Part shown: one piece after another, positions 17,990 to 32,291 of the stretch
Numbering within the stretch: position 1 is the stretch's first letter
How the letters are laid out: each line of letters opens with the position of its first letter
Origin: Candidatus Omnitrophica bacterium CG22_combo_CG10-13_8_21_14_all_43_16
GTDB taxonomy: Bacteria > Omnitrophota > Gorgyraeia > Gorgyraeales > Gorgyraeaceae
Assembly: GCA_002771475.1 (NCBI GenBank)
Contig: PCTH01000028.1
Span: 1 to 41,907 of the forward strand
Reading direction: 5' to 3'
Length of the DNA stretch: 41,907 nt
The notes under the pieces: model-generated
The model's database searches: none
What the model was told of the DNA's origin: nothing
Seen by the model: only the letters and a program-made list of their open reading frames with translations
Translations under genes and position numbers: made by a program

Positions 17990-18039
17990 TCTATTCTCTA
18001 TGTAATACTTTCAATGTCAGATAACACTAATTGCTCTTT

Positions 18040-18281
18040 GCCAGCCCTGGCAGGTTTTGAGAAAAGCCTCGCCGATTTGAGCGGGCACGGTGCCCCGCCT
18101 CCGGGCTGGGGCCATTCGGCGCTGAAATAACTTCGCCGTAATTCCTTGCGGACTTTTGCCGAAATTTTTCTAATGCGCCTCAAACCCCAGCCCGGAGGCG
18201 GGGCAAGCGAAAATCGGCGCGGAGCGAAGGACGTCTCGCTGGGACGTCCGAGCGTCTTTTCGAAAGCCTGCCAGGGCTGGC
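18040..18281. repeat. Nested palindromic element (MITE/REP-like or structured RNA), family A copy 1
   Basis: 15-bp perfect terminal IR (18040-18054 / 18267-18281), 21-bp perfect inner IR (18091-18111 / 18185-18205) and further stems; core homologous to 25193-25374. Confidence 0.85.
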
Positions 18282-18322
18282 TACTATGCAAAGCGTTACC
18301 TAACTATTCAAATAATACACTT

Positions 18323-19348
18323 TTAGCCCCGGATGAGCTCCTTTATAAAAAATACAAAACCCACAATAATTGAATTGTGAATTATATGCACGGCCATGGG
18401 CGCTACAAGAGACCCTGTTGTCTCATATAAAAACGCCATCAGGATGCCCAATATTATAATCGGCGCAAAGCCCGTTACGTTTGTATGCAGCATGCTGAAT
18501 AAAGCTGCGCTTAGCAGCACTCCGGACAGCACTCCAAACCGTTTTCTTACAGCGCTGTATAAAAATCCCCTGAAAAATATTTCCTCTATTATAGGCCCCA
18601 GGATTGCAACAAATACTGTTAAAAATAAAACCACATTGCTTCTTTTTTCTTCTAAAAACATATCAAATACAGGCTGAGCAGGAAATTTATATCCTATCGC
18701 GTTTAGAAACAGCATCGATAAGATAAGGACTGCTATTAAAATAGGCAATATAAACACATAAGCGGTAATCCCGGATAAAACATTTCTATAAAAACCCGCG
18801 GATGCGATGCCCAGGCTGGACAATTTCTCCCTGTATTTTACCATGACAAAATAAAATATCGTTATCCCGGCAATCACATCTATAGAAAATGTGCCCAGTA
18901 TCATGCCCAGATTAGGGTCAATATTAAAATGAAGCGGCTTTGAAACAATGCTTGTTAACGCCCCCAGCATATAGCCTGAGAAAACCGCTATAATAGCCGC
19001 CTTTAACACGTCCGCTATGCCCCATGGTACGGATATTTTATCCGGAACTTTTTCCGGGATTATCTTTTTCCTGCCAAAAAGAAAAAAAAGATTCATCGCC
19101 ATGCCTGCCAGGAGCATAAAAATCCCTGTAAATATTCCATATTTGAAAAGAACTGCGGCAGGCTTTTCCGATTCAAAGAATAACTTTATCTTTTCTTCCG
19201 TGACGCCCATATCCTGGAATGTCATGGAAGAAACGCTTTTTTTATCAGCCGTTTTTTTTCGGCTATATCCTATATTAAGCAGATTAATGCCTAATATAAA
19301 AATCAGCATCCAGATATACATGCGTTCTCTTTTGATAAATTCTAACAT
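18323..19348 (-). CDS. CPBP (CAAX/Abi) family intramembrane glutamic endopeptidase
   Basis: Multiple TM helices; PIIEEIFFRG, FSMLH, HIIHN motifs. Confidence 0.9.
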   Translation of the reverse strand: MLEFIKRERMYIWMLIFILGINLLNIGYSRKKTADKKSVSSMTFQDMGVTEEKIKLFFESEKPAAVLFKYGIFTGIFMLLAGMAMNLFFLFGRKKIIPEKVPDKISVPWGIADVLKAAIIAVFSGYMLGALTSIVSKPLHFNIDPNLGMILGTFSIDVIAGITIFYFVMVKYREKLSSLGIASAGFYRNVLSGITAYVFILPILIAVLILSMLFLNAIGYKFPAQPVFDMFLEEKRSNVVLFLTVFVAILGPIIEEIFFRGFLYSAVRKRFGVLSGVLLSAALFSMLHTNVTGFAPIIILGILMAFLYETTGSLVAPMAVHIIHNSIIVGFVFFIKELIRG

Positions 19349-20115
19349 TTAGGTAAGTTAAAAAGCCTGATGGCGTTTTCAGCAGTCACTGCCGCCACTT
19401 CGTTAAAATCAATCCCTTTTATCTTCGCAACCTCTTCTGCGGCATATTTCACATGCATGGGTTCATTGCGAGCGCCCCTGAAATCCTGAGGAGCCAGGTA
19501 CGGAGCATCTGTCTCAAGAAGCAGCCTGTCCATTGGAACTAATTTTACAATCTCCCTCAGCTTTCCGGCGTTTTTATATGTGATATTGCAGGTGAAAGAT
19601 ATAAAAAATCCCATATCCAGGCATGTCTTTAAAAATTTTTCGTCTCCTGAAAAGCAATGCATGACCCCGCTCAAAGAATTGCCCATGATATTTTTTAAAA
19701 TATCTATCATATCCTCGTGGGAATCGCGATTGTGTATTACCAGGGGCAGCTTCGCGCCTTTTGCGATCTCGAGAAGCCTGGCAAATAATCTCTTCTGATT
19801 CTCCATGGATGAGATATTTCTGTAATAATCAAGCCCGATCTCGCCTATTGCCACAACCTTGGGCTTTTTAAGAAATCCTTCGAAAATCCTAAAATCTCCC
19901 TCGCTTACTTTATCAGCTTCATGAGGATGGATCCCGATAGAGGCGTAAATAAATGCGTTTTCCCGGGCGATCTTTACAGACCTGGCTGTCCCCTCCAGGC
20001 TGGACCCGACATTTATAATAAACTTTACGCCGCTCGCAACGGAACGCTTTAAAACAGCTCCAAGGTCATCATTAAAATCCTTAAAATCCAGATGGCAATG
20101 AGTATCTATCAACAT
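19342..20115 (-). CDS. tatD: TatD family deoxyribonuclease
   Basis: DTHCH, GIHPH, AIGEIGLD, IHNRD, MHCF, ETDAPY. Confidence 0.94.
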   Translation of the reverse strand: MLIDTHCHLDFKDFNDDLGAVLKRSVASGVKFIINVGSSLEGTARSVKIARENAFIYASIGIHPHEADKVSEGDFRIFEGFLKKPKVVAIGEIGLDYYRNISSMENQKRLFARLLEIAKGAKLPLVIHNRDSHEDMIDILKNIMGNSLSGVMHCFSGDEKFLKTCLDMGFFISFTCNITYKNAGKLREIVKLVPMDRLLLETDAPYLAPQDFRGARNEPMHVKYAAEEVAKIKGIDFNEVAAVTAENAIRLFNLPKC

Positions 20116-21266
20116 AGAGGGGACATCTTCCTGAGTCTTTCTACTATAGGAGGGATTTCAACAAGGCAATAATCTACATCTGCTTCCGTGTTCTCATATC
20201 CGAAAGAGAATCTCACGGATCCCTGAGCCATTTCAGGAGGAACAGCCATGGCTGTCAATACATGCGACGGCTCTAAAGACCCGGAAGTGCAGGCAGAACC
20301 TGTTGAAGCAGATATGCCTTTCATGTCAAAGTTCAATACCATTGATTCGCCTTCTATATACCTGAAACTTATATTGAGAGTGCTTGGGAGCCTCTTTTCC
20401 GGATGTCCGTTAAGAGATATTTCTTTAAGCGCTTTATTCAGACCATCCCACATCTTTTTTGTAAGTCTCTTTAAATGGGCGTCGTTCTTTTTCATATCCC
20501 TATGAGCTATTTCAACGGCTTTTGCAAAACCCACAATGCCCGGCACGTTCTCAGTGCCTGCTCTTTTACTTCTTTCGTGATGCCCGCCGTGCTGAAAAGG
20601 CGTTATTTTAACGCCTTTCCTGAGATACATCGCACCTATGCCTTTCGGGCCGTAAACCTTGTGGCCTGAAAAAGAACAGATATCAATCCCGAGGTCTTCC
20701 ACATCAATAGAGAGCTTACCCAGGGCCTGCACGGCATCTGTATGAAAATATATTTTATTCTCGCGGGCTATTTTAGCGATCTCTTTTACAGGCTGTATCG
20801 TACCTGTTTCATTATTGGCTAACATTATAGATATAAGGATCGTATCTTTTCTCACGGCTTCTTTTAATTTATTGATGTCTATTAAACCGTACTTATCCAC
20901 AGGAAGATATGTAACGTCGAAACCCAGCTCTTTTTCTATAAATCTGCACGGTTCCAAAACAGCCAGATGCTCTGTCATGGATGTTATTACGTGCCTTCCT
21001 CTGTTTAGATTAGCCATTGCAACGCCTTTTATGGCGAAATTATCAGACTCTGTCCCTCCTGAAGTAAATATGATATCAGTGGCTTCCGTGCCCAGCGCAT
21101 TTCCGATCACCTCTCTTGCCCCGTCCACTGCCTGCCTTGCCTTCTGGCCCATGGAATATACGCTCGAGGCATTTCCGTAATCCTCGGAAAAATAAGGCAT
21201 CATCGCTTCCAAAACCTCCTTGCGCACCGGAGTTGTAGCATTGTGATCAAGATATATCTGTTTCAT
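20109..21266 (-). CDS. iscS: Cysteine desulfurase (NifS/IscS, group I)
   Basis: YLDHNATT, FTSGGTESDN, NNETG, HTDAVQ, SGHKVYGPKG, STGSACTSG...PSHVL. Confidence 0.92.
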   Translation of the reverse strand: MKQIYLDHNATTPVRKEVLEAMMPYFSEDYGNASSVYSMGQKARQAVDGAREVIGNALGTEATDIIFTSGGTESDNFAIKGVAMANLNRGRHVITSMTEHLAVLEPCRFIEKELGFDVTYLPVDKYGLIDINKLKEAVRKDTILISIMLANNETGTIQPVKEIAKIARENKIYFHTDAVQALGKLSIDVEDLGIDICSFSGHKVYGPKGIGAMYLRKGVKITPFQHGGHHERSKRAGTENVPGIVGFAKAVEIAHRDMKKNDAHLKRLTKKMWDGLNKALKEISLNGHPEKRLPSTLNISFRYIEGESMVLNFDMKGISASTGSACTSGSLEPSHVLTAMAVPPEMAQGSVRFSFGYENTEADVDYCLVEIPPIVERLRKMSPLC

Positions 21267-21280
21267 TTTTTCAGCTCCTT

Positions 21281-22813
21281 CTATTCGATCCTGGGGAAGA
21301 GAGGCGCGGCCTTGCTGATCTTTGTGCCCGACTTAAGCAATCCCCATTTCAAATCATTGAAACTTCTTTTTTCTATTGCCTCAAGGCCGAGCTGCTGGGC
21401 TATCTTAACCGATGTAGCCGGCATGAACGGCATCAATGCCAGAGACACCATCCTCAACGCCTCGCAGAGATCATACATCATATCTTTCAGCTCATCCTGT
21501 TTGTTTTCTTTCGATAATTTCCACGGCGCCTTCTGTTCTATGAATTTATTCGCAATACTTATCAGGCCCCATATGCCATTAAGAGAATAACTAAAATCTA
21601 TATTATCCATGCCTTTTTTTATTTCAGAATCCAGAAGCCCGGCTTTATCGATAAGCGCCTTCGTGATTTCATCCGAATATTTCAAATCCCTTCTTTCAGG
21701 CACAATCCCGGAAAAATATTTCTCAACCATTGACAATGTCCTGTGTAAAAGATTTCCAAGGTCATTCGCCAAGTCGCTATTAATCCTGGAGCGAAGCGCC
21801 TCTTCTGAAAATGACCCGTCTGCCCCGAACTGCACCTCCTTCAGAAGAAAAAATCTATAAGCGTCCACTCCGTATTTATCTGCCATCTCAATGGGATTTA
21901 TGACATTACCTTTCGACTTTGACATCTTGTCCCCGCCTATCTTCCACCAGCCATGCGCGAAAATTGTCTTCGGCAGCTCCAGCCCTGCGGCGTAGAGCAT
22001 TATAGGCCAGTTTACCGCATGCATCCTCAGTATATCCTTGCCTATCATATGCACATCGGCAGGCCAGAACTTATTGAACTTTTCCTCGTCGCTTCCGTAT
22101 CCGCACACGCTTATATAATTTATCAGGGCGTCAAACCAAACGTAAGTAACATGGCCTTTGCTGAAAGGTATCTCTATGCCCCACGATAGCCTTGATTTCG
22201 GCCGGGATACGCATAAATCATTCAAAGGATTTTTTAAAAAACCGAGCACTTCGTTGCGACGCATAGCAGGCAATATAAAATCATCGTGCGATTTTATATA
22301 ATCTATAAGCCAATCCTGATATTTCGAAAGTTTAAAGAAAAAATTCTTTTCTTTTATATGCTCAACTTTTCTCTGGCAATCCGGGCAGTTCCCGTCAACA
22401 AGCTGCGTCTCTATCCAGAAACTCTCGCACGGGGTGCAATACCACCCGCTGTATTCGCCTTCATACAGATCCCCGTTTTTATGGAACATCTCCAATATAT
22501 CTTTTACCACCTTTTCATGCCTGGGGTCTGTTGTGCGTATAAAATCAGTATAATCTATCTCCAGCTTTTTCCACAATCCCAGAAAAACAGGCACTATCGC
22601 GTCAACAAACTCCTTGGGCTCCACGCCTTTTGCCTCGGCCGCGTCTTTTATTTTCTGGCCGTGCTCATCAGTGCCGGTGGCGAATAAAACCTCACAGCCC
22701 ATAAACCTTTTGAATCTGGCAAGCGTATCGCAGGCGATATTCGTATAAGAATGCCCTATATGAGGCGAGCTGTTTACGTAATATATTGGGGTGGTAATGT
22801 AAAATTTTTTCAT
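21281..22813 (-). CDS. metG: Methionine--tRNA ligase (short form without C-terminal tRNA-binding domain)
   Basis: TTPIYY, HIGH, GTDEHG, CTPC/CPDC zinc knuckle, YVWFDAL, GKDI, KMSKS, ends LFPRIE. Confidence 0.97.
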   Translation of the reverse strand: MKKFYITTPIYYVNSSPHIGHSYTNIACDTLARFKRFMGCEVLFATGTDEHGQKIKDAAEAKGVEPKEFVDAIVPVFLGLWKKLEIDYTDFIRTTDPRHEKVVKDILEMFHKNGDLYEGEYSGWYCTPCESFWIETQLVDGNCPDCQRKVEHIKEKNFFFKLSKYQDWLIDYIKSHDDFILPAMRRNEVLGFLKNPLNDLCVSRPKSRLSWGIEIPFSKGHVTYVWFDALINYISVCGYGSDEEKFNKFWPADVHMIGKDILRMHAVNWPIMLYAAGLELPKTIFAHGWWKIGGDKMSKSKGNVINPIEMADKYGVDAYRFFLLKEVQFGADGSFSEEALRSRINSDLANDLGNLLHRTLSMVEKYFSGIVPERRDLKYSDEITKALIDKAGLLDSEIKKGMDNIDFSYSLNGIWGLISIANKFIEQKAPWKLSKENKQDELKDMMYDLCEALRMVSLALMPFMPATSVKIAQQLGLEAIEKRSFNDLKWGLLKSGTKISKAAPLFPRIE

Positions 22814-23604
22814 TTGTTGGTGTAATCTAATTCTATCTGTGTGCCTTCTTCTAATCGAACGAGCACTTTTCGCTTTAACGCATTCACGCTGATAACCTTG
22901 CCTTTGCCTTCCGGCACAGTTATTTTTTCCCCTTCTTTCGGAAGCCCTTTCAGGTATTTTTTATAATTTTCATACTCGTAAGAAAGGCAGCACATAAGCC
23001 TTCCGCACACGCCTGAAATCTTGGTCGGGTTAAGGGACAGATTCTGCTCTTTGGCCATCCTTATGGTAACAGCATCAAAGCCTTTTAAAAAACTGGCGCA
23101 GCATAGAGGCCGGCCGCAATGCCCAAACCCGCCCAGCATCCTTGCCTCATCCCTGACGCCTATCTGCTTTAATTCTATCCTGACCTTAAAGATATGCGCC
23201 AGGTCCTTTACAAGCTCCCTGAAATCCACCCTGTCTTCGGAAGTAAAATAAAAAATGAGCTTTGTGCCGTCAAATGAATACTCGGCATCAATGAGTTTCA
23301 TTTCCAGCTTGCGCTCCTGTATCTTTTTTGCGCATATCTGAAACGCATCTTTAATGCGCTTCTTGTTTTCATTTATCTGGTTCACATCCTCCCTGGTAGC
23401 GACCCGTATTATCTTTTTCAAAGGCTTCTTAAGCTCTTCTTTCGGAATCTTTTCCAGGATGCCTATAACCTGGGCGTAATCCTGGCCTCTTTCAGCGTCT
23501 ATTATCACATAATCGCCCACCTTCGCCTGCAAGCCCTCCGTATTATAAAAAACTATATTTCCGGATTCCCTTATCCTCACCTCTATAATCCCCTGCATAA
23601 TCAC
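22810..23604 (-). CDS. ricT: PSP1-domain protein RicT/YaaT
   Basis: RVDFRELVKDLA, RIELKQIGVRDEA, CGRPLCC, KISGVCGRLMCCL; holB-yaaT-metG context; start GTG 23604 or ATG 23598. Confidence 0.92.
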   Translation of the reverse strand: MIMQGIIEVRIRESGNIVFYNTEGLQAKVGDYVIIDAERGQDYAQVIGILEKIPKEELKKPLKKIIRVATREDVNQINENKKRIKDAFQICAKKIQERKLEMKLIDAEYSFDGTKLIFYFTSEDRVDFRELVKDLAHIFKVRIELKQIGVRDEARMLGGFGHCGRPLCCASFLKGFDAVTIRMAKEQNLSLNPTKISGVCGRLMCCLSYEYENYKKYLKGLPKEGEKITVPEGKGKVISVNALKRKVLVRLEEGTQIELDYTNK

Positions 23605-24569
23605 TGCCTTTCTAGCTCAAGCGCCATATTGAAAAGCGCCATCTTTGGATTTATGTTTCTTCTTATGTAATTTATAGTTTTCATTACGCTGGCTATGTCC
23701 CTTTCTATTTTTTCTGCAGAAAACCTGGCAGAATAAGAAAAGATCTCCTCTATCCTGTCCAGATTCAGAAAAATATTCCTGTCCTGGGTGAATTTTGAAA
23801 CAAGTAGATCCCTGTACCAGGATAAAAGCATGCCGAGCGACGCGTCCAGGTCGTTATATTTTTTATCGTCGCATACCTCTTCCCTGAATATGGCCCTCTT
23901 CCTTAAAAAAAAGTCGTTCAGCATCCTGTCGCGCTCCCTGATATAATCGTTTTCTTTGAAGGCTATTGCCCTGCCCGGGCTGCCCATGGCCATGCGCGAA
24001 AATAAAACCGCTTCCTCTTCATTGAAACCCTGTCTGCTCGTAAGAATTTCCTGAACCTTGTCCCGGCTCAAAAGATTGAACTTCACGATCTTGCATCTGG
24101 AAAATACCGTAGCGAGTATCCCGGAAACAACCGAGGTGGTCAATATGAATATCTGGTTTTCCCTGGGCTCTTCCAGGATTTTCAAAAGCGCGTTCTGCGA
24201 TTCTTCGTTCATATCCTCTGCCTCGGCTATTATAAAAATCTTTTTCCTGGCTTCATACGGCTTCAGGCTCGCCTGATAAATAATATCCCTTATTCTGTCT
24301 ATCTTAATGAAACTGGATCCTTCTTCTTTCCGGATAATAAATAAATCCGGATGATTTAAGGAATTTATTTTCCTGCACGAAACGCATTCTTCGCACGCAT
24401 CCTCTTTTTTTTCGCAATTAATGGCCTTGGCAAATTCTATGCCGGCAGAAAACTTTCCCACGCCGCCGGGCCCGGTAAAGATATAGGCGCCGTTTATATC
24501 TTCCTTGGCAATCATACTACTAAGCGCCCTTACGGCGCTATCCTGTCCTATAATACCCTTTAGCGGCAT
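23601..24569 (-). CDS. holB: DNA polymerase III subunit delta'
   Basis: GPGGVGK, C-x-CxxCxxC zinc site, HPDL, QNALLKILEEP, TVFSRC; follows tmk. Confidence 0.93.
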   Translation of the reverse strand: MPLKGIIGQDSAVRALSSMIAKEDINGAYIFTGPGGVGKFSAGIEFAKAINCEKKEDACEECVSCRKINSLNHPDLFIIRKEEGSSFIKIDRIRDIIYQASLKPYEARKKIFIIAEAEDMNEESQNALLKILEEPRENQIFILTTSVVSGILATVFSRCKIVKFNLLSRDKVQEILTSRQGFNEEEAVLFSRMAMGSPGRAIAFKENDYIRERDRMLNDFFLRKRAIFREEVCDDKKYNDLDASLGMLLSWYRDLLVSKFTQDRNIFLNLDRIEEIFSYSARFSAEKIERDIASVMKTINYIRRNINPKMALFNMALELERQ

Positions 24570-25177
24570 ATTTTTAGAACTCTCTTTCTGATTTCTTCCT
24601 GGGCCAGGGTTATTTCGCCCCCGGAAGATACCACCCTGACTCTTTTAGGTTCTTTTTTTGCGATAGAAAGGTATCCGTTCCTTACCTTATTATGATAAAG
24701 AATGGATTTTCTTTCCATCCTGTCTTTGGACCTGCCTGTCCTTAAAAGCCCGGCCCTGGCGTCTATATCCAGCAAAAACGTAATATCAGGCTTCAGGCCT
24801 TTTGTAACGATGCCGGCTATATTTTCTATGACCTTCAAATCCATGCCTCCGGCATATCCCTGATAAGCAAGGGTGGCGTCGGTAAATCTGTCGCACACCA
24901 CTATCTTTCCCTGCGTAAGAGCGGGCAGGATTTTCTGCTTTACTATCTGGGCCCTGGCTGCCATGTATAAAAGCATCTCGCAAGAAACATCCATGCCTTT
25001 ATTTTTAGGATCCAGGAGGATCTTGCGTATTTTCTCGCTGATCAATGTGCCGCCTGGCTCGCGCGTATGTAAAACCTTATAGCCCTTCTTCCGCAAAAAT
25101 CCGCGCAGCAATCTGGAATGTGTGGTCTTACCGCTTCCTTCAGGGCCTTCAAATGTTATGAATATTCCATGTTTCAT
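24560..25177 (-). CDS. tmk: Thymidylate kinase
   Basis: FEGPEGSGKT, TREPGGT, CDRF, AYQG, PDITFLLD. Confidence 0.96.
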   Translation of the reverse strand: MKHGIFITFEGPEGSGKTTHSRLLRGFLRKKGYKVLHTREPGGTLISEKIRKILLDPKNKGMDVSCEMLLYMAARAQIVKQKILPALTQGKIVVCDRFTDATLAYQGYAGGMDLKVIENIAGIVTKGLKPDITFLLDIDARAGLLRTGRSKDRMERKSILYHNKVRNGYLSIAKKEPKRVRVVSSGGEITLAQEEIRKRVLKICR

Positions 25178-25192
25178 AGTTAATTTCTGTTT

Positions 25193-25374
25193 GGCAGGCT
25201 GGGACCGTTCGGCGCAGAGAGTGTTTCGCCGCGCGCTACGGTTTACGGCTCGTTTTTTATACTGAAGGTAGTCTTGACAGTATAAAAAACTTCGCCGTAA
25301 TCCCTTGCGCGCTTATATTCTAAAAAATCTATTATGCCGAAACCTCTCAAATGCGCCTCAGGTCCCAGCCTGCC
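25193..25374. repeat. Rod-like palindromic element, family A copy 2 (more complete core)
   Basis: 14-bp perfect terminal IR (25193-25206 / 25361-25374), 13-bp perfect inner IR (25252-25264 / 25278-25290), intermediate stems GCGCGC/GCGCGC and TTACGG/CCGTAA. Confidence 0.85.
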
Positions 25375-25392
25375 CAACCGCTATATAACTCT

Positions 25393-26847
25393 CTATATTT
25401 TCTTTTCCCAGACTGTTGTTCCGTCTTTTTTATCTTTTGGAACTAATCCTTTTTTTTCTAGCGCTTTTCTAACCTCATCAGCTGTCTTGAAATCTTTACT
25501 TTTCCTAGCTTCCTCTCGCCTTTTAACTAGTATTTTAATACTATCTGTTAAAGTACCATTATCCGTGTCTTTTACGCCAATATTCTGAATAACATCCACA
25601 TTCAGTAAAGACCCATCTAAAAATTCTTTTGATAAGCCTAAAGTCTTCCCCAAATCAATTAAACTTTCTTTCGCATACTCTAGATTTTCTCCACTTTCTA
25701 TACTTTTATTAATAAAAGATACCATTTCAAAAATAATACCTAGCGCTTGAGCTGTATTAAAATCATCGTCCATAACTTCTTCAAATTTAGAGCGATATTC
25801 GTCGACCAATTTATTGATATTTTTATTAGGCCTAGATTTTGTTTTTATATTTTTCAACTCATTCATTGATGTGCAAATACGCTTATACGCCTCTTTTGCT
25901 CCGTCCATCCTCTCCCACGAAAAATCCACGGGATGGGAATAGTGCGTCTGCAAAAATAATATTTTCAACGCGTCCGCCGGGTATTTGGCCAATATATCCT
26001 CTATGGTGATAAAATTACCGAGGCTCTTTGCCATCTTTTCTTTATTGATGGTCAAAAGGCCGTTGTGCATCCAGCAGCGCGCGAATTTATTGCCCGCGCC
26101 TTCTGACTGCGCAATCTCGTTCTCATGATGAGGAAATATAAGATCTATGCCTCCTCCGTGTATATCAAATTCGCCTCCCAATATATCAGAGCTCATAACA
26201 GAGCATTCTATATGCCATCCTGGCCTGCCGTTTCCCCACGGGCTTTGCCATGAAGACTCGCCCTCTTTTGCGGATTTCCATAAAGCGAAATCCAGAGGGT
26301 CTTTTTTATTCTCCCCCGGGGCTATCCTGGCGCCCGATTCCAGCATCTCAAAACTCTGGTTGGATAATTTCCCGTAACCATTAGCCTTACGCACATCAAA
26401 ATACACATCACCGCCTGACGCGTAAGCCACTTTGCGCTCAATCAGTATTTTTATAAAATCTATCATCTTTCCTATGTACTCTGTTGCCTTCGGCTCTTTA
26501 TCGGGAGGCATAATCCCCAGCCTCTCCATGTATTCGTGGTAAACTTTAAGGTATTTGTCCGAAACCTTTTTCACGGCGATGGTTAAATCCTCACCCTTAA
26601 ATTCTTCTTTTGCCTTATTGATTATTTTGTCGTCTACGTCCGTAACATTTCTGGCAAATTTTACTTCATAACCTTTGTACCTAAAATAACGCCGTACTAC
26701 GTCAAACGCATAAGCGCTTCTCGCGTGCCCTATATGCGGGACATCGTAAACAGTGGGCCCGCAGACATACATGCTGATACACCCTTCCTTGATCGGCTTG
26801 AATTCTTCTTTTTTTCTTGTAAGCGTATTGTATATTTTCATGCTCAT
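25393..26847 (-). CDS. cysS: Cysteine--tRNA ligase
   Basis: YVCGPTVY, HIGH, NVTDVDDKI, DFALWK, GRPGWHIECS, DIHGGG, FPHHENE, KMAKS, DDDFNT; start ATG 26847 (ATGA overlap) or 26841. Confidence 0.97.
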   Translation of the reverse strand: MSMKIYNTLTRKKEEFKPIKEGCISMYVCGPTVYDVPHIGHARSAYAFDVVRRYFRYKGYEVKFARNVTDVDDKIINKAKEEFKGEDLTIAVKKVSDKYLKVYHEYMERLGIMPPDKEPKATEYIGKMIDFIKILIERKVAYASGGDVYFDVRKANGYGKLSNQSFEMLESGARIAPGENKKDPLDFALWKSAKEGESSWQSPWGNGRPGWHIECSVMSSDILGGEFDIHGGGIDLIFPHHENEIAQSEGAGNKFARCWMHNGLLTINKEKMAKSLGNFITIEDILAKYPADALKILFLQTHYSHPVDFSWERMDGAKEAYKRICTSMNELKNIKTKSRPNKNINKLVDEYRSKFEEVMDDDFNTAQALGIIFEMVSFINKSIESGENLEYAKESLIDLGKTLGLSKEFLDGSLLNVDVIQNIGVKDTDNGTLTDSIKILVKRREEARKSKDFKTADEVRKALEKKGLVPKDKKDGTTVWEKKI

Positions 26848-27311
26848 ACCAGGCATACGACTGCGTACGCTGCAAGCGCCTCGCCTCTTCCTATTGCGCC
26901 GATACCTTCCTGGGTCGTGGCTTTCACGTTCACGCTATCAATGGTTATGCCCAGTGCTGCCGCTATCTCCCTTTTCATATTATCTTTAAAAGGAGCTATC
27001 TTAGGCTCTTCCAGTATAATCACTGAATCCACATATTCCACCCTGAAGCCTTTTTTCTTTATCTTCGCTGAAACCTCTTTTAAAAGTTCTGAGCTTGATA
27101 TATTCAAATACCTGTCATCATTCACTGGAAATTGATGGCCTATATCGTCCAGGCCTGCGGCTCCTAAAATAGCATCGCATATGGCGTGAAGAAGCGCGTC
27201 TCCGTCAGAATTGCCCAGCAGGCCTTTTATATACGGGATCTCAATGCCTCCCAGCATAAGCGGCCTCGCGTCCACGAACCTATGAATATCATAACCAATG
27301 CCAACTCTCAT
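26844..27311 (-). CDS. ispF: 2-C-methyl-D-erythritol 2,4-cyclodiphosphate synthase
   Basis: GIGYDIH, SDGDALLHA, DIGHQFP, NVKATT; follows ispD. Confidence 0.95.
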   Translation of the reverse strand: MRVGIGYDIHRFVDARPLMLGGIEIPYIKGLLGNSDGDALLHAICDAILGAAGLDDIGHQFPVNDDRYLNISSSELLKEVSAKIKKKGFRVEYVDSVIILEEPKIAPFKDNMKREIAAALGITIDSVNVKATTQEGIGAIGRGEALAAYAVVCLV

Positions 27312-27994
27312 AAGAACTCCTTTAATAATATTTTTGCCAATTCCAAATCCTCTTTTGTAGTGATTTTTATATTACTATACGAACCCATGACAATCTTTGT
27401 CTTCACGCCTATTTTTTCCACAAGCATGGAATCATCCGTGGCTTTAATATCTTTCTGCCCGGCAATCTTATAAGCCCTTTCTATCATAGCCCTTTTAAAA
27501 ACCTGCGGGGTCTGGGCCTCCCAGAAATATTCCCTGGAAGGGGTGTTTTTAATAAAACCGTCTTCTCCGGCAAATTTCAAAGTAGGCTTCACGGGTACAG
27601 CTGCAATTGCCGCACCGCTTTTGGACGCTTCTTTTAATAAAGCCTCTATCAGCTTATTCGTAACAAAAGGCCTTATGCCGTCGTGGATCAGGATGTAATC
27701 AATATCTTTTGAGACATATTTTAACGCATTGTAAACAGAATCGCTTCTTTCTTTCCCCCCTATTACAAGTCTTGCCTTTTTTATATTATACTTTTTTATT
27801 ATGTCTCTTCGGGCCTTATCAATTTTATCTTTTTCTACGCTGACCAATATCTCTTTTATATTTTTATTTTTGGAAAGCGCTATCAGGGTACGAGCAAGTA
27901 TAGGCTTGGCGCCAAGATTTATGTAAGGCTTTTGTATCTTTGATTTTAATCTGATGCCCGCGCCAGCTGCAGGGACAATAGCCGCTACTCTCAT
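27308..27994 (-). CDS. ispD: 2-C-methyl-D-erythritol 4-phosphate cytidylyltransferase
   Basis: PAAGAGIR, GGKERSDSV, HDGIRP, QTPQVF, TDD, NIKITT. Confidence 0.96.
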   Translation of the reverse strand: MRVAAIVPAAGAGIRLKSKIQKPYINLGAKPILARTLIALSKNKNIKEILVSVEKDKIDKARRDIIKKYNIKKARLVIGGKERSDSVYNALKYVSKDIDYILIHDGIRPFVTNKLIEALLKEASKSGAAIAAVPVKPTLKFAGEDGFIKNTPSREYFWEAQTPQVFKRAMIERAYKIAGQKDIKATDDSMLVEKIGVKTKIVMGSYSNIKITTKEDLELAKILLKEFL

Positions 27995-29004
27995 TTATTT
28001 CTCTTATTATCGTCAGGTAATTTTCCGAATATCATCCTGCCGGCCGCTGTCTGAAGAACGCTGCCCACCACCACATTTACGTTTTGGCCTATCAATCTCC
28101 TGCCGTTATCCACTACTATCATTGTGCCGTCTTCCAGATACCCTACTCCCTGATTGTATTCCTTGCCTTCCTTGATAAGCCTCGTCTCAATCATTTCTCC
28201 CGGCAGAACCACCGGCCTCAGGGAATTGGCAAGCTCATTAACATTCAACACCCTTATGCCCTGTATCTCTGAAACCTTATTCAGGTTATAATCGTTTGTG
28301 AATATCTTTGCGCCCAGGACCTTGGCCAGCTTCACGAGCTTCAAATCCACTTCTTTGATGTCCGGAAAATCATCATTATGTATCTTAACATCTATATTTG
28401 GATTTTTCTGGAGCTTCCCCAGTATATCGAGGCCTCTTTTCCCGCGTTCGCGCTTGAGAGAATCCGCAGAATCAGCTACCTGCTGTAATTCTTTTAATAC
28501 AAAACGCGGAACTATGAATTTCCCGTCCAGAAAACCTGTCTTGCATATATCCGCAATCCTGCCGTCTATAATAACGCTTGTATCCAGCAGTATCATCTCG
28601 TCCCTCTGGTCCTGCCTTGAAAATTTTACATAAGGCACTATTATATTAAACTCGTCCCTGCCTCGTATGGCCATAATCATTCCCAGATAGCAGAATACAA
28701 GGGTCAGCACAACTCGCAGGGAATACACAAGATTTTTATCAAAAGATATGAGAGCCAGCGTATCGGATACCAGTTTCGCCATTATGAGGCCGAATAACAG
28801 TCCGAAAACAGCTGACGAAAGGCCCCTGACAGACACCTTTCTCATGGTAAACTCCAGGATAATTATGAGCATGGCTATTAAAAAACCTATCGATGCGCCA
28901 AGCATGCTGAAATCAGCTGAACCTGCCTGCACAAACGAGCCTATCTGAAAACCTATTATAACGCTGAGCACCACAAAGAATACACGTATAAAAATTAATG
29001 TCAT
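27991..29004 (-). CDS. Membrane PIN/TRAM-domain protein (YacL-like)
   Basis: N-terminal TM helices, LDTSVIIDGRI, RGKRGLDIL, TNDYNLNKV, GVGYLEDGTMIVV, QTAAGRMIF; directly upstream of ispD. Confidence 0.93.
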   Translation of the reverse strand: MTLIFIRVFFVVLSVIIGFQIGSFVQAGSADFSMLGASIGFLIAMLIIILEFTMRKVSVRGLSSAVFGLLFGLIMAKLVSDTLALISFDKNLVYSLRVVLTLVFCYLGMIMAIRGRDEFNIIVPYVKFSRQDQRDEMILLDTSVIIDGRIADICKTGFLDGKFIVPRFVLKELQQVADSADSLKRERGKRGLDILGKLQKNPNIDVKIHNDDFPDIKEVDLKLVKLAKVLGAKIFTNDYNLNKVSEIQGIRVLNVNELANSLRPVVLPGEMIETRLIKEGKEYNQGVGYLEDGTMIVVDNGRRLIGQNVNVVVGSVLQTAAGRMIFGKLPDDNKRNK

Positions 29005-29019
29005 AGAATCTCCCTATTT

Positions 29020-29751
29020 TTATTTCTTTTTTTTATTGTTCCTGGGTTCAGGCGGCTTGAATAAAAGCTTCCACGGATGTTGTTTTATATCAAGAATCAT
29101 TTCATCGATATGCTTGTATAATGTATCGTCTGACATAAGCCTTCCGATCGTGCCCTTGCCCTGCTTTGCGTAAGACAGAAAATCCCTCAGATCCCCGCTT
29201 AGCGCCTCCGCGTTGTTAAAGGTATTCTTCAAAGATGTCCTCAAGGCCTCGTCTCCGGCAATCTTGTTTACCGAATCCGTAAGAACGCTTATTTTTTCTA
29301 TAAGCTCTTTCGTGGACCTGGCAAGTTCTTCTGTAGACACGGGGTCATTGCCTCTCAAGGTATCGCCTTTTTGCAAAAGCCTTGTATCCCTGGTGCCCGG
29401 GAATATCTCCAGGTATTTTTCCCCCAGAAGTCCCAGCGTATTTATAGACGCTCTTGCGTTTTCGTTGATCCAGGTATTCTGCGACACCCAGACATTTAAT
29501 CTAACCAAGGGCTTGTTTTCCTTTTCATCAAAATAAACCTTTATGTCCTGCACCTCTCCCACCTGAACCCCTGCATAACGTACCGGCGCGCCCACGCCTA
29601 TGCCGTTCGCAAAGCTGAAGACCACGTTCATGTTATAACCCTGCTTGACGCTGTAAAAATTTCCTATAGAAAATATTATTACGGAAAGTATCACTATGCC
29701 TATGAAAATAAATATGCCTACCTTTAATTCAAAATTCATCCTTGTAAACAT
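29020..29751 (-). CDS. mlaD: MlaD/MCE family protein
   Basis: ELKVGIF TM anchor, GAPVRYAGVQVGEV, GLLGEKYLEI, helical tail GTIGRLMSDDTLY, HPWKLL. Confidence 0.9.
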   Translation of the reverse strand: MFTRMNFELKVGIFIFIGIVILSVIIFSIGNFYSVKQGYNMNVVFSFANGIGVGAPVRYAGVQVGEVQDIKVYFDEKENKPLVRLNVWVSQNTWINENARASINTLGLLGEKYLEIFPGTRDTRLLQKGDTLRGNDPVSTEELARSTKELIEKISVLTDSVNKIAGDEALRTSLKNTFNNAEALSGDLRDFLSYAKQGKGTIGRLMSDDTLYKHIDEMILDIKQHPWKLLFKPPEPRNNKKKK

Positions 29752-29761
29752 TGATACCTCC

Positions 29762-30511
29762 TTATGCGTCTTCTGTTATAGGGCCTTTTGCAGCTCCTGT
29801 TATAAACTGTTTCACTATAGGGTCTTTTGTATTCTTAATATCATCCGGGGTTCCGATAGTTATAATCTTCCCTTTATATAACATCGCAATCCTGTCGGCT
29901 ATTTTGAAAGCGCTGACCATATCATGGGTAACCACTATGGACGTCACGTTCAGTTTATTATTTAAATCTATAATAAGGTCATTTATGGCATCGGCCATTA
30001 TCGGATCCAGCCCGGTGGTAGGCTCATCGTACAGTATGATACCGGGATTATTGCAGATCGCGCGCGCGAGCCCTACTCTTTTTTTCATCCCGCCGCTCAG
30101 CTCAGCCGGCATAAGCTTTTCTATGCCTTTCAACCCTACGAGCTCCAAAGAACCGGCCACCTTTTTCCGGATATCCTCTTCAGGCGTATTCGTGTGCTCT
30201 CTTAAAGTAAAACCCACATTTTCACCCACTGTCATTGAATCAAATAAAGCAGCTCCCTGAAAAAGCATCCCGAAGCTAAGCCTGATCTTATCCATCTCGT
30301 GCTCCTCAAGCCTTGTCATGTCATTCCCGTCTATAATGACCTGGCCGATGTCAGGCTTCATGAGCCCTATTATGTGCTTCAAAAGCACGCTCTTCCCGCA
30401 GCCCGAGCGGCCTATTATAACAATCACCTCTCCTGAATTTATAATCAGATTCAGGTTATCCAGGACTTTTGACCTGGTAAATGCCTTGGAAAGATTTATA
30501 ATTTCTATCAT
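29762..30511 (-). CDS. mlaF: MlaF/Mkl-type ABC transporter ATPase
   Basis: GRSGCGKS, FQGAALFDS, LSGGMKKRVGLARA, YDEPTTGLDP, VTHD; start at ATG 30511 (the longer ORF start lies inside a hairpin). Confidence 0.92.
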   Translation of the reverse strand: MIEIINLSKAFTRSKVLDNLNLIINSGEVIVIIGRSGCGKSVLLKHIIGLMKPDIGQVIIDGNDMTRLEEHEMDKIRLSFGMLFQGAALFDSMTVGENVGFTLREHTNTPEEDIRKKVAGSLELVGLKGIEKLMPAELSGGMKKRVGLARAICNNPGIILYDEPTTGLDPIMADAINDLIIDLNNKLNVTSIVVTHDMVSAFKIADRIAMLYKGKIITIGTPDDIKNTKDPIVKQFITGAAKGPITEDA

Positions 30512-30519
30512 AGCTTTGA

Positions 30520-30544
30520 ATGATGGGAGTGCGGCTCCCATCAT
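30520..30544. repeat. Perfect 10-bp hairpin between ruvB and mlaF
   Basis: ATGATGGGAG-TGCGG-CTCCCATCAT; no U-tract on the sense strand. Confidence 0.6.
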
Positions 30545-30545
30545 A

Positions 30546-31592
30546 TTAGAATAATTCTTTTTGCGATTCCTTCTTATACGCTATCTTCAGATGGTCATAC
30601 GCCAGCTTTGTGACTTCTCTGCCTCTGGGCGTACGCTTCAGAAATCCTATCTTTAATAAAAACGGCTCCACCACATCCACTATGGTGTCGCTCTCTTCAT
30701 TGAGCGTTGCCGCAAGCGATTCTATGCCCACGGGCCCGCCGTCATAAAAATCAATTACAGCCTTCATAACTTTCCTGTCTATATCGTCCAGGCCAGCGGA
30801 GTCTATCCTGTGCGACGCGAGGCCAGCGATAGCAATCTCTTTATCTATTTTTTTATTACCTTTCACTTCGCTGTAATCCCTGACCCTTCTAAGGAGCCTG
30901 TTAGCCACGCGGGGAGTGCCGCGCGAACGTCCGGCAATCTCAATAGCAGCATCTTTATCAAGGGGTATGCTTAAAAGCTCGCTGGACCGCTCTATTATCT
31001 TCACGAGATCCTCTGTCTCATAAAACTCAAGGTGGTAATACATCCCGAATCTGCCGCGCAAAGGAGCGCTCAATAATCCTGCGCGGGTAGTGGCCCCGAT
31101 GAGCGTAAATCTTTTAAGGTTGAATTTTATAGTTTTTGCGTAAGGCCCTTTATCTATAAGAAAATCTATCTGATAGTTTTCCATCGCGGGATATATAAAT
31201 TCCTCCACAACCTTTGAAAGCCTGTGTATCTCGTCTATAAAAAGTATATCGCCCTCTCCGAGATTGGTAAGGATACCTATCAAGTCTCCGGCTCTTTCTA
31301 TTGCAGGGCCTGAGGTGGCTGTAATCTTAGAGCCCATCTCGCGGCTTATTATATGGGCCAGGGTTGTCTTGCCTAAACCCGGAGGCCCTGAAAGCAAAAT
31401 ATGCTCAAGGCCCTCTTTTCTTTTTTTGGCTGCCTTTATCGCTATATTTACATTATCAATCACATGTTTCTGGCCTACGAAATGTTTCAAGCTGTCAGGC
31501 CTGAGAGATATATTAAATACAGTCTCTTCTTCTGCTTCCTGACCGGTAATCAAGCGCTCGCGGTCGTCATTTATTTTATTCTTTTCAGACAT
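30546..31592 (-). CDS. ruvB: Holliday junction branch migration helicase RuvB
   Basis: LRP, GPPGLGKTT, FIDEIHRL, GATTRAG, SRGTPRVANRLLRRVRD, GGPVG, RTPRGR. Confidence 0.97.
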   Translation of the reverse strand: MSEKNKINDDRERLITGQEAEEETVFNISLRPDSLKHFVGQKHVIDNVNIAIKAAKKRKEGLEHILLSGPPGLGKTTLAHIISREMGSKITATSGPAIERAGDLIGILTNLGEGDILFIDEIHRLSKVVEEFIYPAMENYQIDFLIDKGPYAKTIKFNLKRFTLIGATTRAGLLSAPLRGRFGMYYHLEFYETEDLVKIIERSSELLSIPLDKDAAIEIAGRSRGTPRVANRLLRRVRDYSEVKGNKKIDKEIAIAGLASHRIDSAGLDDIDRKVMKAVIDFYDGGPVGIESLAATLNEESDTIVDVVEPFLLKIGFLKRTPRGREVTKLAYDHLKIAYKKESQKELF

Positions 31593-31606
31593 AACTCACC
31601 TTCTTT

Positions 31607-31660
31607 ATACATTCGCCCCGATAAATCGGGGCTCAGTATTCCGCCCAAGGAACCTTGGGC
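31607..31660. repeat. Two tandem hairpins between ruvA and ruvB; the first is a minimal family A unit
   Basis: ATAC-A-TTCG-CCCCGAT-AA-ATCGGGG-CTCA-GTAT followed by GCCCAAGG-AA-CCTTGGGC. Confidence 0.7.
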
Positions 31661-31661
31661 T

Positions 31662-32291
31662 TCATTTTTTGCTTTTCTGCTTATATACTTCATTCAATAA
31701 ATCTTCCGCTGTTTCTATATCCTGATTGCGCTTCAATGCCTCGTCAAGCATGTTCTTGGCTTCGAATTTTTTATACTGAAGCTGCAATAAAACGCCCATT
31801 GCCTCTTCCTGTATATCGCGTTTTCCCGTAAAAGCCTTAGCCCCGGTTCTGGTATCCTGTATAAGCCCGAATTTTCCCACCTTGCCCTGAAGTTTAGCCA
31901 CGATCTCCCTGGCTCTTTGCTCCCCGATACCCGGTAAAGACTTTAAGAACGGGACATCTGCCATATCAATCGCCCTGGCAATCATGGATATGGGCATCTT
32001 CAGCGCCCTCACAGCAGCCTTGGGCCCTATGCCGGAAACTGTTATAAACTTTTCAAAAAATTCTTTTTCTATTTCATTCAAAAAACCTATCAGGCACTGA
32101 AACCCCTTGGATGGCTCCAGCTGAAAATAATGAAATGTTATAAGGGAAATAGAGCCGTCGGGTTTCGCGCTATCCCCCAGGCACTGCATCACAGCTCCCG
32201 GGATAAACACTTCATAGCATATCCCGTTCACATCCAGCACTACTGAATCCTCTTTTTTCTCTACCAATTTACCTGAAATCCTGCAAATCAT
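31662..32291 (-). CDS. ruvA: Holliday junction DNA-binding protein RuvA
   Basis: MICRISG, VNGICYEV, VSGIGPKAA and LPGIGEQRA HhH motifs; SD GGAGA before ATG 32291. Confidence 0.94.
   Translation of the reverse strand: MICRISGKLVEKKEDSVVLDVNGICYEVFIPGAVMQCLGDSAKPDGSISLITFHYFQLEPSKGFQCLIGFLNEIEKEFFEKFITVSGIGPKAAVRALKMPISMIARAIDMADVPFLKSLPGIGEQRAREIVAKLQGKVGKFGLIQDTRTGAKAFTGKRDIQEEAMGVLLQLQYKKFEAKNMLDEALKRNQDIETAEDLLNEVYKQKSKK

Follow-up and report, generated by a model that had tools for sequence, protein, structure and literature searches.

Two families of small mobile hairpin-forming repeats with a common purine-rich internal loop at gene junctions of Omnitrophota

Results

Hairpin sites in the window

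The window, i.e. the whole stretch of DNA analysed (41,907 nt), belongs to a draft genome (G000; 1.23 Mb, 90.8% complete) of the Omnitrophota, uncultivated, tiny-celled bacteria with genomes of 1–2 Mb. It carries copies of two families (famA and famB) of small, mobile, hairpin-forming intergenic repeats. These copies lie at three sites, for which the initial annotation had quoted - strand sequences that were all recovered letter for letter.

The intergenic region between the genes for CysRS and thymidylate kinase (cysS–tmk) is filled by a full-length famA copy (site 2, 25191..25377, - strand; TGAG at 25360–25357, CGAA at 25211–25208, bulged C at 25207). From the outer stem, its predicted RNA fold (−105.9 kcal/mol) leads through the internal loop 5'-CUGAG/CGAACG-3' into a multi-loop core that bears an apical hairpin. 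This copy was the best-scoring nhmmer match of famA and forms row 1 of the famA alignment; at the same locus an element was also present in G008, G005 and G004.

Site 1 (18093..18203, - strand; TGAG at 18182–18179, CGAA at 18118–18115, bulged T at 18114) is an internally deleted famA copy, in which the 20-bp outer stem and the loop were kept and the loop halves are spaced by 71 nt, compared to 136–181 nt in other famA copies. Folded as DNA, the GA strand (−46.6 kcal/mol) was better by 5 kcal/mol than its complement (−41.5 kcal/mol). The copy is nested within two further repeat layers. The middle layer, C, has its left arm at 18204..18271 and its right arm at 18050..18092 (both - strand); many famA copies lie between such arms, and the centre between these constant arms is occupied either by famA or by one of several unrelated small perfect hairpins. 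The outermost layer, D, consists of a left arm at 18272..18320, with a terminal inverted-repeat-like end, and a right arm at 18003..18049 (both - strand). Layer D-like arms were also found around other composites (C2, C62, L167 and L182).

Site 3 (31607..31663, - strand; element ends set from filled/empty pairs) is a famB copy, with a 5' hairpin at 31660–31641 and a 3' hairpin at 31639–31607, the latter reading ATAC-TGAG-stem-CGAA-T-GTAT (TGAG at 31635–31632, CGAA at 31615–31612, bulged T at 31611). The ruvA stop codon (31664–31662) is made up of one flank base and the first two bases of the element, and the ruvA–ruvB spacer is shorter by about 60 nt in G007 and G005. All three sites folded much better as RNA than shuffled sequences did (z = −7.7, −11.4 and −4.7 for sites 1, 2 and 3, respectively). 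The loci had been described as unrelated; sites 1 and 2 turned out to be homologous copies of one dispersed repeat, famA, and site 3 is famB.

Copy numbers and distribution

The famA core measures 150–190 nt, famB about 57–85 nt. Within G000, famA gave 43 nhmmer matches, corresponding to about 31 loci, and its 28-nt core pattern matched 28 times. The family was present in 10 of 12 congeners. The core pattern, searched in 400 genomes sampled from the phylum, was present in 18, each of them classed as 'same genus', 'same family' or 'same class' (reversed-pattern control: 0). For famB, 26 distinct copies were collected from G000 and the other loci analysed, and 74 distinct copies among 80 metagenome loci; a famB-like word occurred 44 times in G008. 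Searching with a 16-nt famB word and one mismatch was noisy, and only multi-copy genomes were counted because the control matched too. No co-distribution of the families was found (G009: 10 famA core matches, 0 famB; G292: 10 famB-like matches, 0 famA), so that one common enzyme is not indicated.

The 31 famA loci of G000 were intergenic on a rough long-ORF gene map, overlapping only with short, probably spurious ORFs. In low-copy genomes no conserved famA synteny was detected, the 39 flanking proteins being products of unrelated housekeeping genes. The viral contigs scanned gave 0 matches to either family. Absences of genes or copies, here and below, are provisional because the genomes are incomplete drafts.

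Identity with a catalogued motif had been named as a finding that would remove the novelty. No Rfam 15 family matched in the window at the gathering threshold, the best sub-threshold hit being mir-330 (29.5 bits vs 60). Among the publications listed for Omnitrophota/Omnitrophica, none dealt with repeats or structured RNAs, and in PMC10066038 the terms 'repeat', 'palindrom', 'intergenic' and 'non-coding' occurred 0 times each; supplements to these publications could hold repeat annotations.

Conservation of the loop and covariation of the stems

The descriptor used for a genome-wide search required a stem of ≥4 bp, then TGAG and another stem of ≥4 bp, an interval of up to 260 nt, and the 3' series stem, CGAA, N, stem. 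It matched 24 times, compared to a mean of 3.15 (range 1–5) in 20 dinucleotide shuffles and 0–5 matches with seven permuted loop words. By family, 19 matches were famA, 3 famB and 2 elsewhere, the last figure being chance level. The predicted excess over chance thus holds for the genome as a whole but not outside famA and famB, and the TGAG/CGAA signature, put forward as the sole definition of one family, is rather a feature shared by two sequence families. A third family with the motif is possible.

In famA, the loop columns were retained in 56–60 of 60 aligned sequences; in famB, TGAG was found in 23 of 26 copies. Of the 54 metagenome copies in which a stem was identified, 49 had CGAA plus T or C behind it, and the stems there were of at least 11 different sequences. 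Outside G000, 72 of 85 unique complete copies had TGAG/CGAA-N. Loop and bulge, initially called invariant, are accordingly strongly conserved but with exceptions: two complete copies and one partial copy in G000 have Watson–Crick CTCTGG/CCAGAG instead of the loop, and more distant famA members carry GA/GAA, UGGA/GAA or fully paired versions.

The suggested covariation check came out positive, with stems that covary around loop letters that stay fixed. Paired cells in the fold amounted to 94.6%, compared to 86.8% in shuffles (0 of 500 shuffles reached the observed value), two-sided changes were seen in 28 of 47 pairs vs 18.0 ± 1.5, and the covariation score was 0.277 vs 0.04–0.08 for slid partners. 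The famA alignment contained 120 G.T wobbles vs 48 A.C cells, favouring the GA strand; selection was shown to act on one strand. Whatever agent mobilises the two families probably uses their common purine-rich internal loop for recognition.

The loop can be written 5'-C-UGA-G / C-GAA-Y-G-3', in which a U-A pair is joined by two G.A pairs in tandem and a single additional pyrimidine; a 5'-YGAR-3' context favours sheared G.A pairs in RNA and DNA. In kink-turns, a 3-nt bulge is followed by tandem G.A/A.G pairs and is bound by an L7Ae-family protein. Two adjacent G.A/A.G pairs closed by a G-C pair recall this fold, but the present loop is 3 by 4 nt and has, instead of a 3-nt bulge, one extra pyrimidine two positions away on the 3' strand; no match to the L7Ae family (PF01248) was found in G000. 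By eye, the consensus did not fit a hammerhead core, kink-turn, sarcin–ricin motif, group II domain 5 or retron/UG27-type ncRNA (no reverse transcriptase was found in G000), nor were the motifs of UG27 arrays, as far as given in the consulted part of the Minerva preprint, seen on reading famA. The approximately 150-nt core with five fixed internal loops exceeds the known needs of HUH enzymes and is more RNA-like, an observation that runs against an HUH reading.

Mobility and insertion

Both families are mobile, since orthologous sites in sister species are empty; the proposal of non-autonomous, multi-copy intergenic repeats was supported. The site 1 composite (~17990–18329) was absent at the orthologous site in all 5 congeners searched, where the gap measured 18 nt (G008) or 44–64 nt (G003, G005, G004 and G007), compared to ~340 nt in G000. 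The site of the C89 copy was occupied in G005 and G004 and vacant in G008, G003 and G007. That of the C62 copy was vacant in G003, G005 and G007, in which the flanking genes overlap, and five composites of 284–513 nt (in G008, G011, G006 and G001) corresponded to only 9–83 nt at the G000 counterparts.

For famB, six filled/empty pairs could be analysed, and in all six the joined flanks of the filled site were as long as the empty site, so that no target is duplicated. Insertion was precise, between ...AAT and AAA..., and 18 of the 26 copies had GAAAAT as left flank. The element ends in ...CGAATGTAT, followed by AAA, and its 3' end is the last base of the motif-bearing hairpin (the hairpin foot); the 5' and 3' hairpins differ in sequence. 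Duplication-free insertion with the 3' end at the foot of the motif hairpin is the behaviour expected for single-strand HUH transposition. famA travels mostly within composites, and its ends are not definable from filled/empty comparisons, which counts against the HUH reading. Its outer stems vary from copy to copy; one composite was flanked by a direct repeat of ~15 nt.

Orientation

The sites had been described on the transcribed strand. Relative to flanking co-directional genes, the GA strand was sense in 11 and antisense in 10 cases in G000, and sense in 21 and antisense in 20 in relatives (with 5/10 in addition); pooled, 37 copies had the same and 40 the opposite orientation, which is random, so the 'transcribed strand' does not generalise beyond the window. 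Counts for famB were 21 sense vs 13 antisense. Since GC skew mirrors the coding strand (r = 0.98), it was no usable proxy for replication direction; the skew sign at the repeats split 14 to 15. For IS200/IS605 elements a bias relative to the replication fork is expected, against which the lack of bias to gene direction stands as a point contrary to an HUH reading.

Candidate enzymes

The enzyme had been predicted to lie outside the window, and RAYT-like Y1 HUH genes do occur elsewhere in the genome. G000 has two (PF01797, at C31 and C76), both with the NCBIfam REP-associated tyrosine transposase NF047646 as best match; at a cut-off of 80, the 175-aa protein scored above (97.7 bits) and the 229-aa protein below (64.7 bits). 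Y1 genes were present in 37 of 41 related genomes. TnpB (PF07282), DDE_Tnp_1, IS110 and reverse transcriptase were not found in G000.

Nuclease or transposase genes flanked by the motif, which had been suggested as a route to the enzyme, were not among the Y1 loci: famA, famB or the descriptor lay within ~1.2–1.5 kb of 0 of 21 loci in relatives and 0 of 36 in the genus. One of the G000 RAYT genes was flanked by a separate repeat of its own, of the GTAG-plus-hairpin kind. The 36 Y1 proteins of the genus fell into 10 clusters, none covering all famA-bearing genomes, and the sole Y1 of G009, which has many famA copies, belongs to a cluster also found in the famA-negative G002 and G012. On four metagenome contigs a Y1 gene was located within 2 kb of a famB copy; on one contig, a 159-aa ORF that adjoins the Y1 gene, and not the Y1 gene itself, lies between two famB copies in inverted orientation. 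L383 was discarded as a Y1 neighbour, its match having fallen on the non-HUH part of long ORFs, and the single rve-domain gene of G000 (at C39) was discarded as a partner, lacking matching ends. An autonomous element (tnpA with or without tnpB) with famB ends was not found in G000, at Y1 loci or in viral contigs, provisionally for these drafts. The proposed link to a structure-recognising HUH enzyme hence fits the insertion mode of famB, but the motif flanks none of the Y1 genes surveyed, and no Y1 orthogroup tracks the repeats.

Comparison with known systems

REP/REPIN sequences are imperfect palindromes of ~20–40 nt or simple doublets with a 5' tetranucleotide such as GTAG, and the RAYT gene is flanked by inverted copies of its own REP. 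famA and famB resemble them as multi-copy intergenic imperfect palindromes in a genome with RAYT-like Y1 HUH genes and, by analogy, may be recognised as hairpins as REPs are. They differ in that famA is 150–190 nt long, has five fixed internal loops and 136–181 nt between loop halves, and shows no GTAG-type word in its alignment; the 33-nt 3' hairpin of famB is preceded by ATAC, not GTAG, and no RAYT gene is flanked by either family at the loci surveyed. Identity with a REP-type repeat, a further possibility raised initially, is thus matched by intergenic multi-copy occurrence and a RAYT gene, not by palindrome size, GTAG or RAYT flanking. The REP/REPIN–RAYT features used here reportedly go back to Nunvar 2010, Bertels & Rainey 2011, Ton-Hoang 2012 and Messing 2012.

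Like IS200/IS605 elements, famB has two different end hairpins, inserts without target duplication just 3' of an A-rich word, and has a 3' cut site that lies at the hairpin foot and pairs with the tetranucleotide on the hairpin's 5' side (ATAC/GTAT). Unlike these, no autonomous partner with famB ends and no TnpB were found, and the G000 Y1 genes score as RAYT rather than IS200. To our knowledge, the hairpins of IS200/IS605 elements have not been described with a tandem G.A loop. The features of these and of palindrome-associated transposable elements are said to derive from Ton-Hoang 2005/2010, Barabas 2008 and He 2015.

famB differs from classical MITEs in having neither terminal inverted repeats nor a fixed target duplication, only layer D being TIR-like. 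Mosaic or nested intergenic repeats are known as the BIMEs of E. coli, Correia, RUP, ERIC and cyanobacterial MITEs; the present repeats are likewise modular, at gene junctions and in both orientations, with elements inside elements, but their nesting is concentric (three layers at site 1) and conservation of the innermost module, whose stems covary, extends over a bacterial class. The left-end hairpin of minute virus of mice is said by Cotmore & Tattersall to have a 'bubble' of GA opposite GAA, read by the HUH nickase NS1. GA facing GAA in a long terminal hairpin processed by an HUH enzyme is similar, distant famA members being exactly GA/GAA; as this is a eukaryotic virus with rolling-hairpin replication, the likeness is an analogy that implies no homology.

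Discussion

The reading we tentatively favour, at somewhat less than even confidence, is that the elements are non-autonomous and are recognised in the form of a folded single strand, the enzyme probably being of the HUH type. Both families would function as folded single strands, one particular strand forming a rod-like hairpin whose stems need only pair and whose purine-rich internal loops are held fixed. The loop beside the hairpin foot may be the irregularity that lets a structure-specific enzyme acting on single-stranded DNA locate and position the element. The likeliest candidate would be a Y1 HUH transposase of the RAYT/IS200 kind, which would cut at the hairpin foot and rejoin the strand to a single-stranded target; the folded form would be DNA rather than RNA, and famA would presumably take the same route as famB.

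It is possible, if rather unlikely, that RNA is the functional form and that a rod-like tandem G.A fold was spread through intergenic regions as a protein-binding or processing module, for instance a transcript-end stabiliser, an intercistronic site for RNase III or another nuclease, or a small RNA transcribed from its own promoter. Class-wide deep loop conservation with stem covariation is the usual signature of structured RNA, the wobbles, of the G-U type, favour one strand, and copies sit strictly between genes, often 1–20 nt from a stop or start codon; famB copies can provide the stop codon or lie just upstream of a Shine–Dalgarno sequence, and the cysS–tmk element persists in at least four species with outer stems that differ and are still paired. 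The sense/antisense counts for both families argue against this explanation, as do the lack of synteny in low-copy genomes, of a conserved promoter-like sequence upstream of the outer stem (by reading), of an Rfam match, of an L7Ae-family protein in G000 and of the kink-turn 3-nt bulge. When metatranscriptome (lake X23, X24) and DNA (X8, X9) runs were compared with 24900–25700, only short contigs from related repeats matched; one 151-nt X24 contig covers 25199–25343 with 6 differences, contigs carrying neither strand nor transcription information.

Ordinary MITEs moved by an unassembled classical DDE transposase, with the GA loop as a founder quirk kept by recent copying instead of selection, seem improbable. 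The ~25-bp inverted-repeat-like ends of the outermost composite layer, the composite between direct repeats and the rve-domain gene would fit, and with contigs frequently ending at the repeats, complete insertion sequences may have escaped assembly. Yet famB has no terminal inverted repeats and duplicates no target, G000 lacks DDE_Tnp_1, IS110 and TnpB, and the rve locus has no matching ends. Recent copying moreover fails to explain the loop, because it was kept while adjoining stems changed repeatedly with compensation, and also in members from other families of the class. Double-stranded palindromes serving the host as nucleoid-protein or gyrase sites or bidirectional terminators, as proposed for enterobacterial BIMEs, would agree with equally frequent orientations, long perfect stems, confinement to gene junctions and persistence at some orthologous sites, but are highly improbable, as a function at the duplex level would keep neither one-strand asymmetric loops nor a G.T excess over A.C, and many orthologous junctions have no element.

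Two bolder readings can be put forward, which we consider unlikely. Either the GA/GAA loop would be a structural address for a trans-acting factor, marking several unrelated Omnitrophota hairpin elements and steering them into the single-stranded tips of other hairpins, whereby concentric hairpin-in-hairpin repeats would arise, or the class-wide 150-nt famA core would not be a passive transposon end but a new mobile structured RNA with a catalytic or protein-scaffolding role.

In these small genomes, dozens of structured repeats occupy housekeeping-operon junctions and break up assemblies. With many stems and one fixed loop, famA and famB are a clean natural data set on structure-specific strand recognition. 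The role of RAYTs in moving REPs is still unsettled, and the exact ends and exact target of famB offer a means to test whether RAYT-like enzymes mobilise elements of this kind. Should it be RNA that adopts the fold, famA would represent a class-wide structured RNA not previously on record. Annotation and binning of Omnitrophota genomes would benefit from a model of these repeats.

Loop signature and repeat families

In the source draft genome (G000; 1,226,160 bases, 92 contigs, 42.8% G+C, 90.8% complete), all long ORFs across 18104..31639 of the window are housekeeping genes on the - strand (DUF362/ferredoxin, CAAX protease, TatD, MetRS, HolB, Tmk, CysRS, RuvB and RuvA). The three hairpins quoted in the initial annotation, all on the - strand (site 1, 18108-18188; site 2, 25201-25366; site 3, 31607-31639), were confirmed at these positions, and each folded far better than its own shuffles. 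The whole genome was searched with the descriptor stem-TGAG-stem...stem-CGAA-N-stem, which gave 24 matches against a mean of 3.15 (range 1-5) in 20 dinucleotide shuffles and 0-5 matches when the loop words were permuted. By origin, 19 matches belonged to one repeat (family A), 3 to another (family B), and 2 lay elsewhere, which is the chance level. The signature that had been proposed to define an element family is therefore real and exceeds shuffles, but since 22 of the 24 matches fall into two repeat families and the rest are at chance level, it marks these families and is not itself one. Likewise, sites 1 and 2, taken for unrelated loci, were identified by BLAST and nhmmer as homologous copies of one dispersed repeat, family A; site 3 belongs to family B.

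Structure and distribution of family A

Family A was located by BLAST and nhmmer at 31 loci in G000, several of them broken by contig ends or N runs. From the outside inwards, it comprises an outer stem of 12-20 bp, the sequence of which varies between copies with pairing kept, the loop 5'-C-UGA-G / C-GAA-Y-G-3', a rod in which four more purine-rich internal loops are fixed, and an apical hairpin, of which at least three unrelated versions occur. The copy at site 1 has lost the inner half of this structure. RNAalifold was applied to an alignment of 60 sequences from several species (A1) and returned 47 pairs, with compensatory changes in 28. Paired cells amounted to 94.6% versus 86.8% in shuffles (attained by 0 of 500), and the covariation score was 0.277 versus 0.04-0.08 with slid partners; the stems around the loop covary. 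Strict invariance of the loop, as first described, did not hold: its columns were kept in 56-60 of the 60 rows (extra base C in 37, T in 18), TGAG/CGAA-N was present in 72 of 85 unique complete copies outside G000, and in some copies the loop is closed by Watson-Crick pairs (CTCTGG/CCAGAG in G000, CTTCG/CGAAG in other genomes).

Family A was present in 10 of 12 congeners. Of 400 genomes sampled from the phylum, 18 contained its 28-nt core word, every one belonging to the same class (reversed-word control, 0); most positive genomes had 1-3 copies, and counts of 20 or more were confined to the genus of G000. Distant members carry GA/GAA, UGGA/GAA or similar loops, occasionally a paired version, at the same junction of outer stem and core; the loop type is thus old and recurrent, its exact letters drifting. 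A species-genome scan for relatives with the same repeat gave Omnitrophota or Omnitrophica titles for 75 of the 80 matches listed, the remaining five comprising four named 'uncultured Planctomycetales' and one named 'bacterium'. In the cysS-tmk spacer of the relative G011 (locus L122), a 'mini' family A copy of about 50 nt has the outer stem and GA loop joined straight to the last inner helix, so large internal deletions spare the GA loop.

Family B and further repeats

Site 3 corresponds to the 3' hairpin within a family B copy spanning 31607-31663; longer copies, with an additional nested hairpin, reach about 85 nt. The start G(G/A)AGCC and the end CGAATGTAT are common to 26 distinct copies, in which the arrangement is ATAC-TGAG-stem-CGAA-T-GTAT, with TGAG in 23 of the 26 and several unrelated stem sequences. 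A metagenome set was retrieved with the 5' part of the 3' hairpin (80 loci, 74 distinct copies); among the 54 copies in which the stem was located by script, it was followed by CGAA plus T or C in 49. At 31662-31664 of the window, the ruvA stop TGA consists of one flanking T and the first two bases (GA) of family B, the insertion supplying the stop. On metagenome contig L376 (1967-2730), an inverted family B pair flanks a 159-aa ORF whose start resembles a signal peptide, and a small ORF similar to this one adjoins family B on metagenome contig L383. An 85-aa ORF framed by 16-nt inverted repeats (L383:2480-2880) looks like a GIY-YIG nuclease from its N-terminal sequence, read by eye, and is possibly a small mobile gene.

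A possible third family in G000 reads CTGAG-CGAAG-CGAATG with a minimal inner hairpin. In its copy on contig C87, compared with those on C38 and C14, the stretch 5' of the loop is duplicated in reverse orientation and has lengthened a short hairpin, apparently by a template switch; such switches may give rise to new perfect stems. At 39 places G000 has the word AGCGAAGCGA(A/G), within which lies GCGAAGC, a mini-hairpin unit of very high stability. The word is part of at least three further families of hairpin repeats, and one repeat holding it is framed by GTCATTGCGAG...CTCGCAATGAC. A small hairpin repeat, ACTATGGGAGTC...GACTCCCATAGT (G000 C59:7061-7088 and C11:21839-21861; C121 of the relative G008), fills several junctions where sister species carry family A or B and is a further REP-like family competing for their sites.

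Mobility and nesting

Site 1 belongs to a 340-nt composite with three concentric layers: family A innermost, layer C around it and layer D outermost. None of the five congeners searched had the composite at its orthologous CAAX-protease/DUF362 junction, where G008 had 18 nt only, at flank identities of 88-91%. Two more family A copies of G000 have empty orthologous sites in three species each, and at one empty site the flanking genes overlap by ATGA; five composites of other species correspond to 9-83 nt in G000. At the cysS-tmk junction, the element is present in G000 and in the relatives G008, G005 and G004, with outer stems that differ and are all paired; G003, G001 and G011 have remnants or the mini version, and no element was found at this junction in G012 and G009.

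For family B, six filled sites in G008 had exact empty counterparts in G000. The joined flanks equalled the empty site in length in all six pairs, hence no target bases were duplicated. Insertion took place after ...AAT and before AAA... (left flank GAAAAT in 18 of 26 copies), which places the last base of the element at the last base of the short ATAC/GTAT helix stacked under the GA loop.

The constant arms of layer C enclose either family A or a small perfect hairpin; these hairpins are of several unrelated types, one of which is also found as the inner stem of family B; given these variable centres and the common hairpin type, the repeats are modular and nested. The arms around site 1 (18003-18320) form these layers C and D, also seen on G000 contigs C2, C62 and C54 and at loci L167 and L182, layer D having inverted-repeat-like ends of about 25 bp and layer C a hypervariable perfect hairpin between constant arms. 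On C62, a direct repeat of about 15 nt lies on either side of the composite, and C54 has a short layer-D hairpin only, where G008 has the full composite.

Strand and orientation

The orientation of the strand carrying the TGAG...CGAA loop (GA strand) was counted relative to co-directional flanking genes. Family A gave 11 sense and 10 antisense copies in G000, 21 and 20 in six congeners and others, and 5 and 10 in low-copy genomes of other families (read by eye); metagenome copies of family B gave 21 and 13. With counts this near to even, the GA strand is not tied to the transcribed strand, to which the initial annotation had assigned it. Folding favours one strand, the GA strand; A1 had 120 G.T versus 48 A.C cells, and at site 1 the GA strand, folded as DNA, was favoured over its complement by 5 kcal/mol. 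GC skew was rejected as a proxy for replication direction: across 51 G000 contigs of at least 8 kb, it followed gene-strand bias (r = 0.98; mean absolute skew 0.14), coding strands being strongly richer in G than C.

Candidate enzymes

G000 encodes two Y1 HUH proteins, the best NCBIfam match of both being REP-associated tyrosine transposase, one above the cut-off. The second gene is surrounded by a GTAG-plus-hairpin repeat of its own, with about 10 copies genome-wide; at C76:7402-9436 (L002, L296), a 175-aa RAYT-like gene holds one such copy within its coding sequence. No TnpB, DDE_Tnp_1, IS110, reverse transcriptase or L7Ae was found in G000 at its 90.8% completeness, and the sole rve-domain gene was rejected as a partner, its locus being without matching ends. 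Y1 genes were present in 37 of 41 related genomes. Two sets of Y1 loci were inspected, 21 across relatives and 36 in the genus, and none had family A, family B or a descriptor match nearby, which speaks against a link; the Y1 proteins of the genus formed ten patchy clusters, none tracking family A, and the distributions of the two families across genomes were not coupled. Among the 80 metagenome loci of family B, a true Y1 gene lay within 2 kb in four contigs, chance expectation being below 1, a rough estimate based on some 3 genes in every 1.5 Mb rather than a computed control. This proximity weakly favours a link. In one of the four, the Y1 gene is neighboured by a small ORF that lies between two inverted copies. 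A fifth apparent neighbour was discarded, its domain not being HUH.

Interpretation

Precise, duplication-free insertion, an end at the hairpin foot, selection for folding of one strand, orientation indifferent to transcription, and free stems with fixed loops together point to a structure-specific enzyme that recognises the element in its folded, single-stranded form. Recognition of single-stranded DNA by a structure-specific enzyme of the HUH type is tentatively preferred here, at slightly less than an even chance. To our knowledge, the enzymes that recognise a folded single strand in this way are Y1 HUH transposases. IS200/IS605 and RAYT enzymes use hairpinned ssDNA as substrate and insert 3' of a short word with no target duplication, and DNA, like RNA, stably accommodates tandem sheared G.A pairs where the context is 5'-YGAR-3'. 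A Y1 HUH transposase would act on the folded single-stranded element, the GA loop being the irregularity that would set its position relative to the cut site; nesting would follow if other hairpins, once extruded, were targeted at their single-stranded tips. The weak points of the HUH reading are that Y1 genes show no physical or phyletic link, that no strand bias is demonstrable, and that the core size and deep conservation of family A fit RNA at least as well as HUH-recognised DNA.

A function of the repeats as RNA, set beside the near-even orientation counts, appears unlikely overall. That the repeats are ordinary DDE-type MITEs is improbable, and a host function at the duplex level, set beside folding that favours one strand, more improbable still.

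In the way they work, both families most resemble REP/REPIN or gene-less IS200/IS605 derivatives, but no RAYT flanked by either family, which defines the former, and no autonomous partner, which defines the latter, was found; the loop is not a kink-turn. The repeats had no match in Rfam 15, so identity with a catalogued Rfam motif did not remove their novelty, and no description of such repeats was found in full-text searches or in the text of the main Omnitrophota genomics paper (PMC10066038; supplements outside the search). New here is a set of mobile intergenic repeats, structured and nested, that have a GA/GAA loop in common and are of a general kind already known. If true, the loop as a recognition code, or family A as a functional RNA, would be of high interest.
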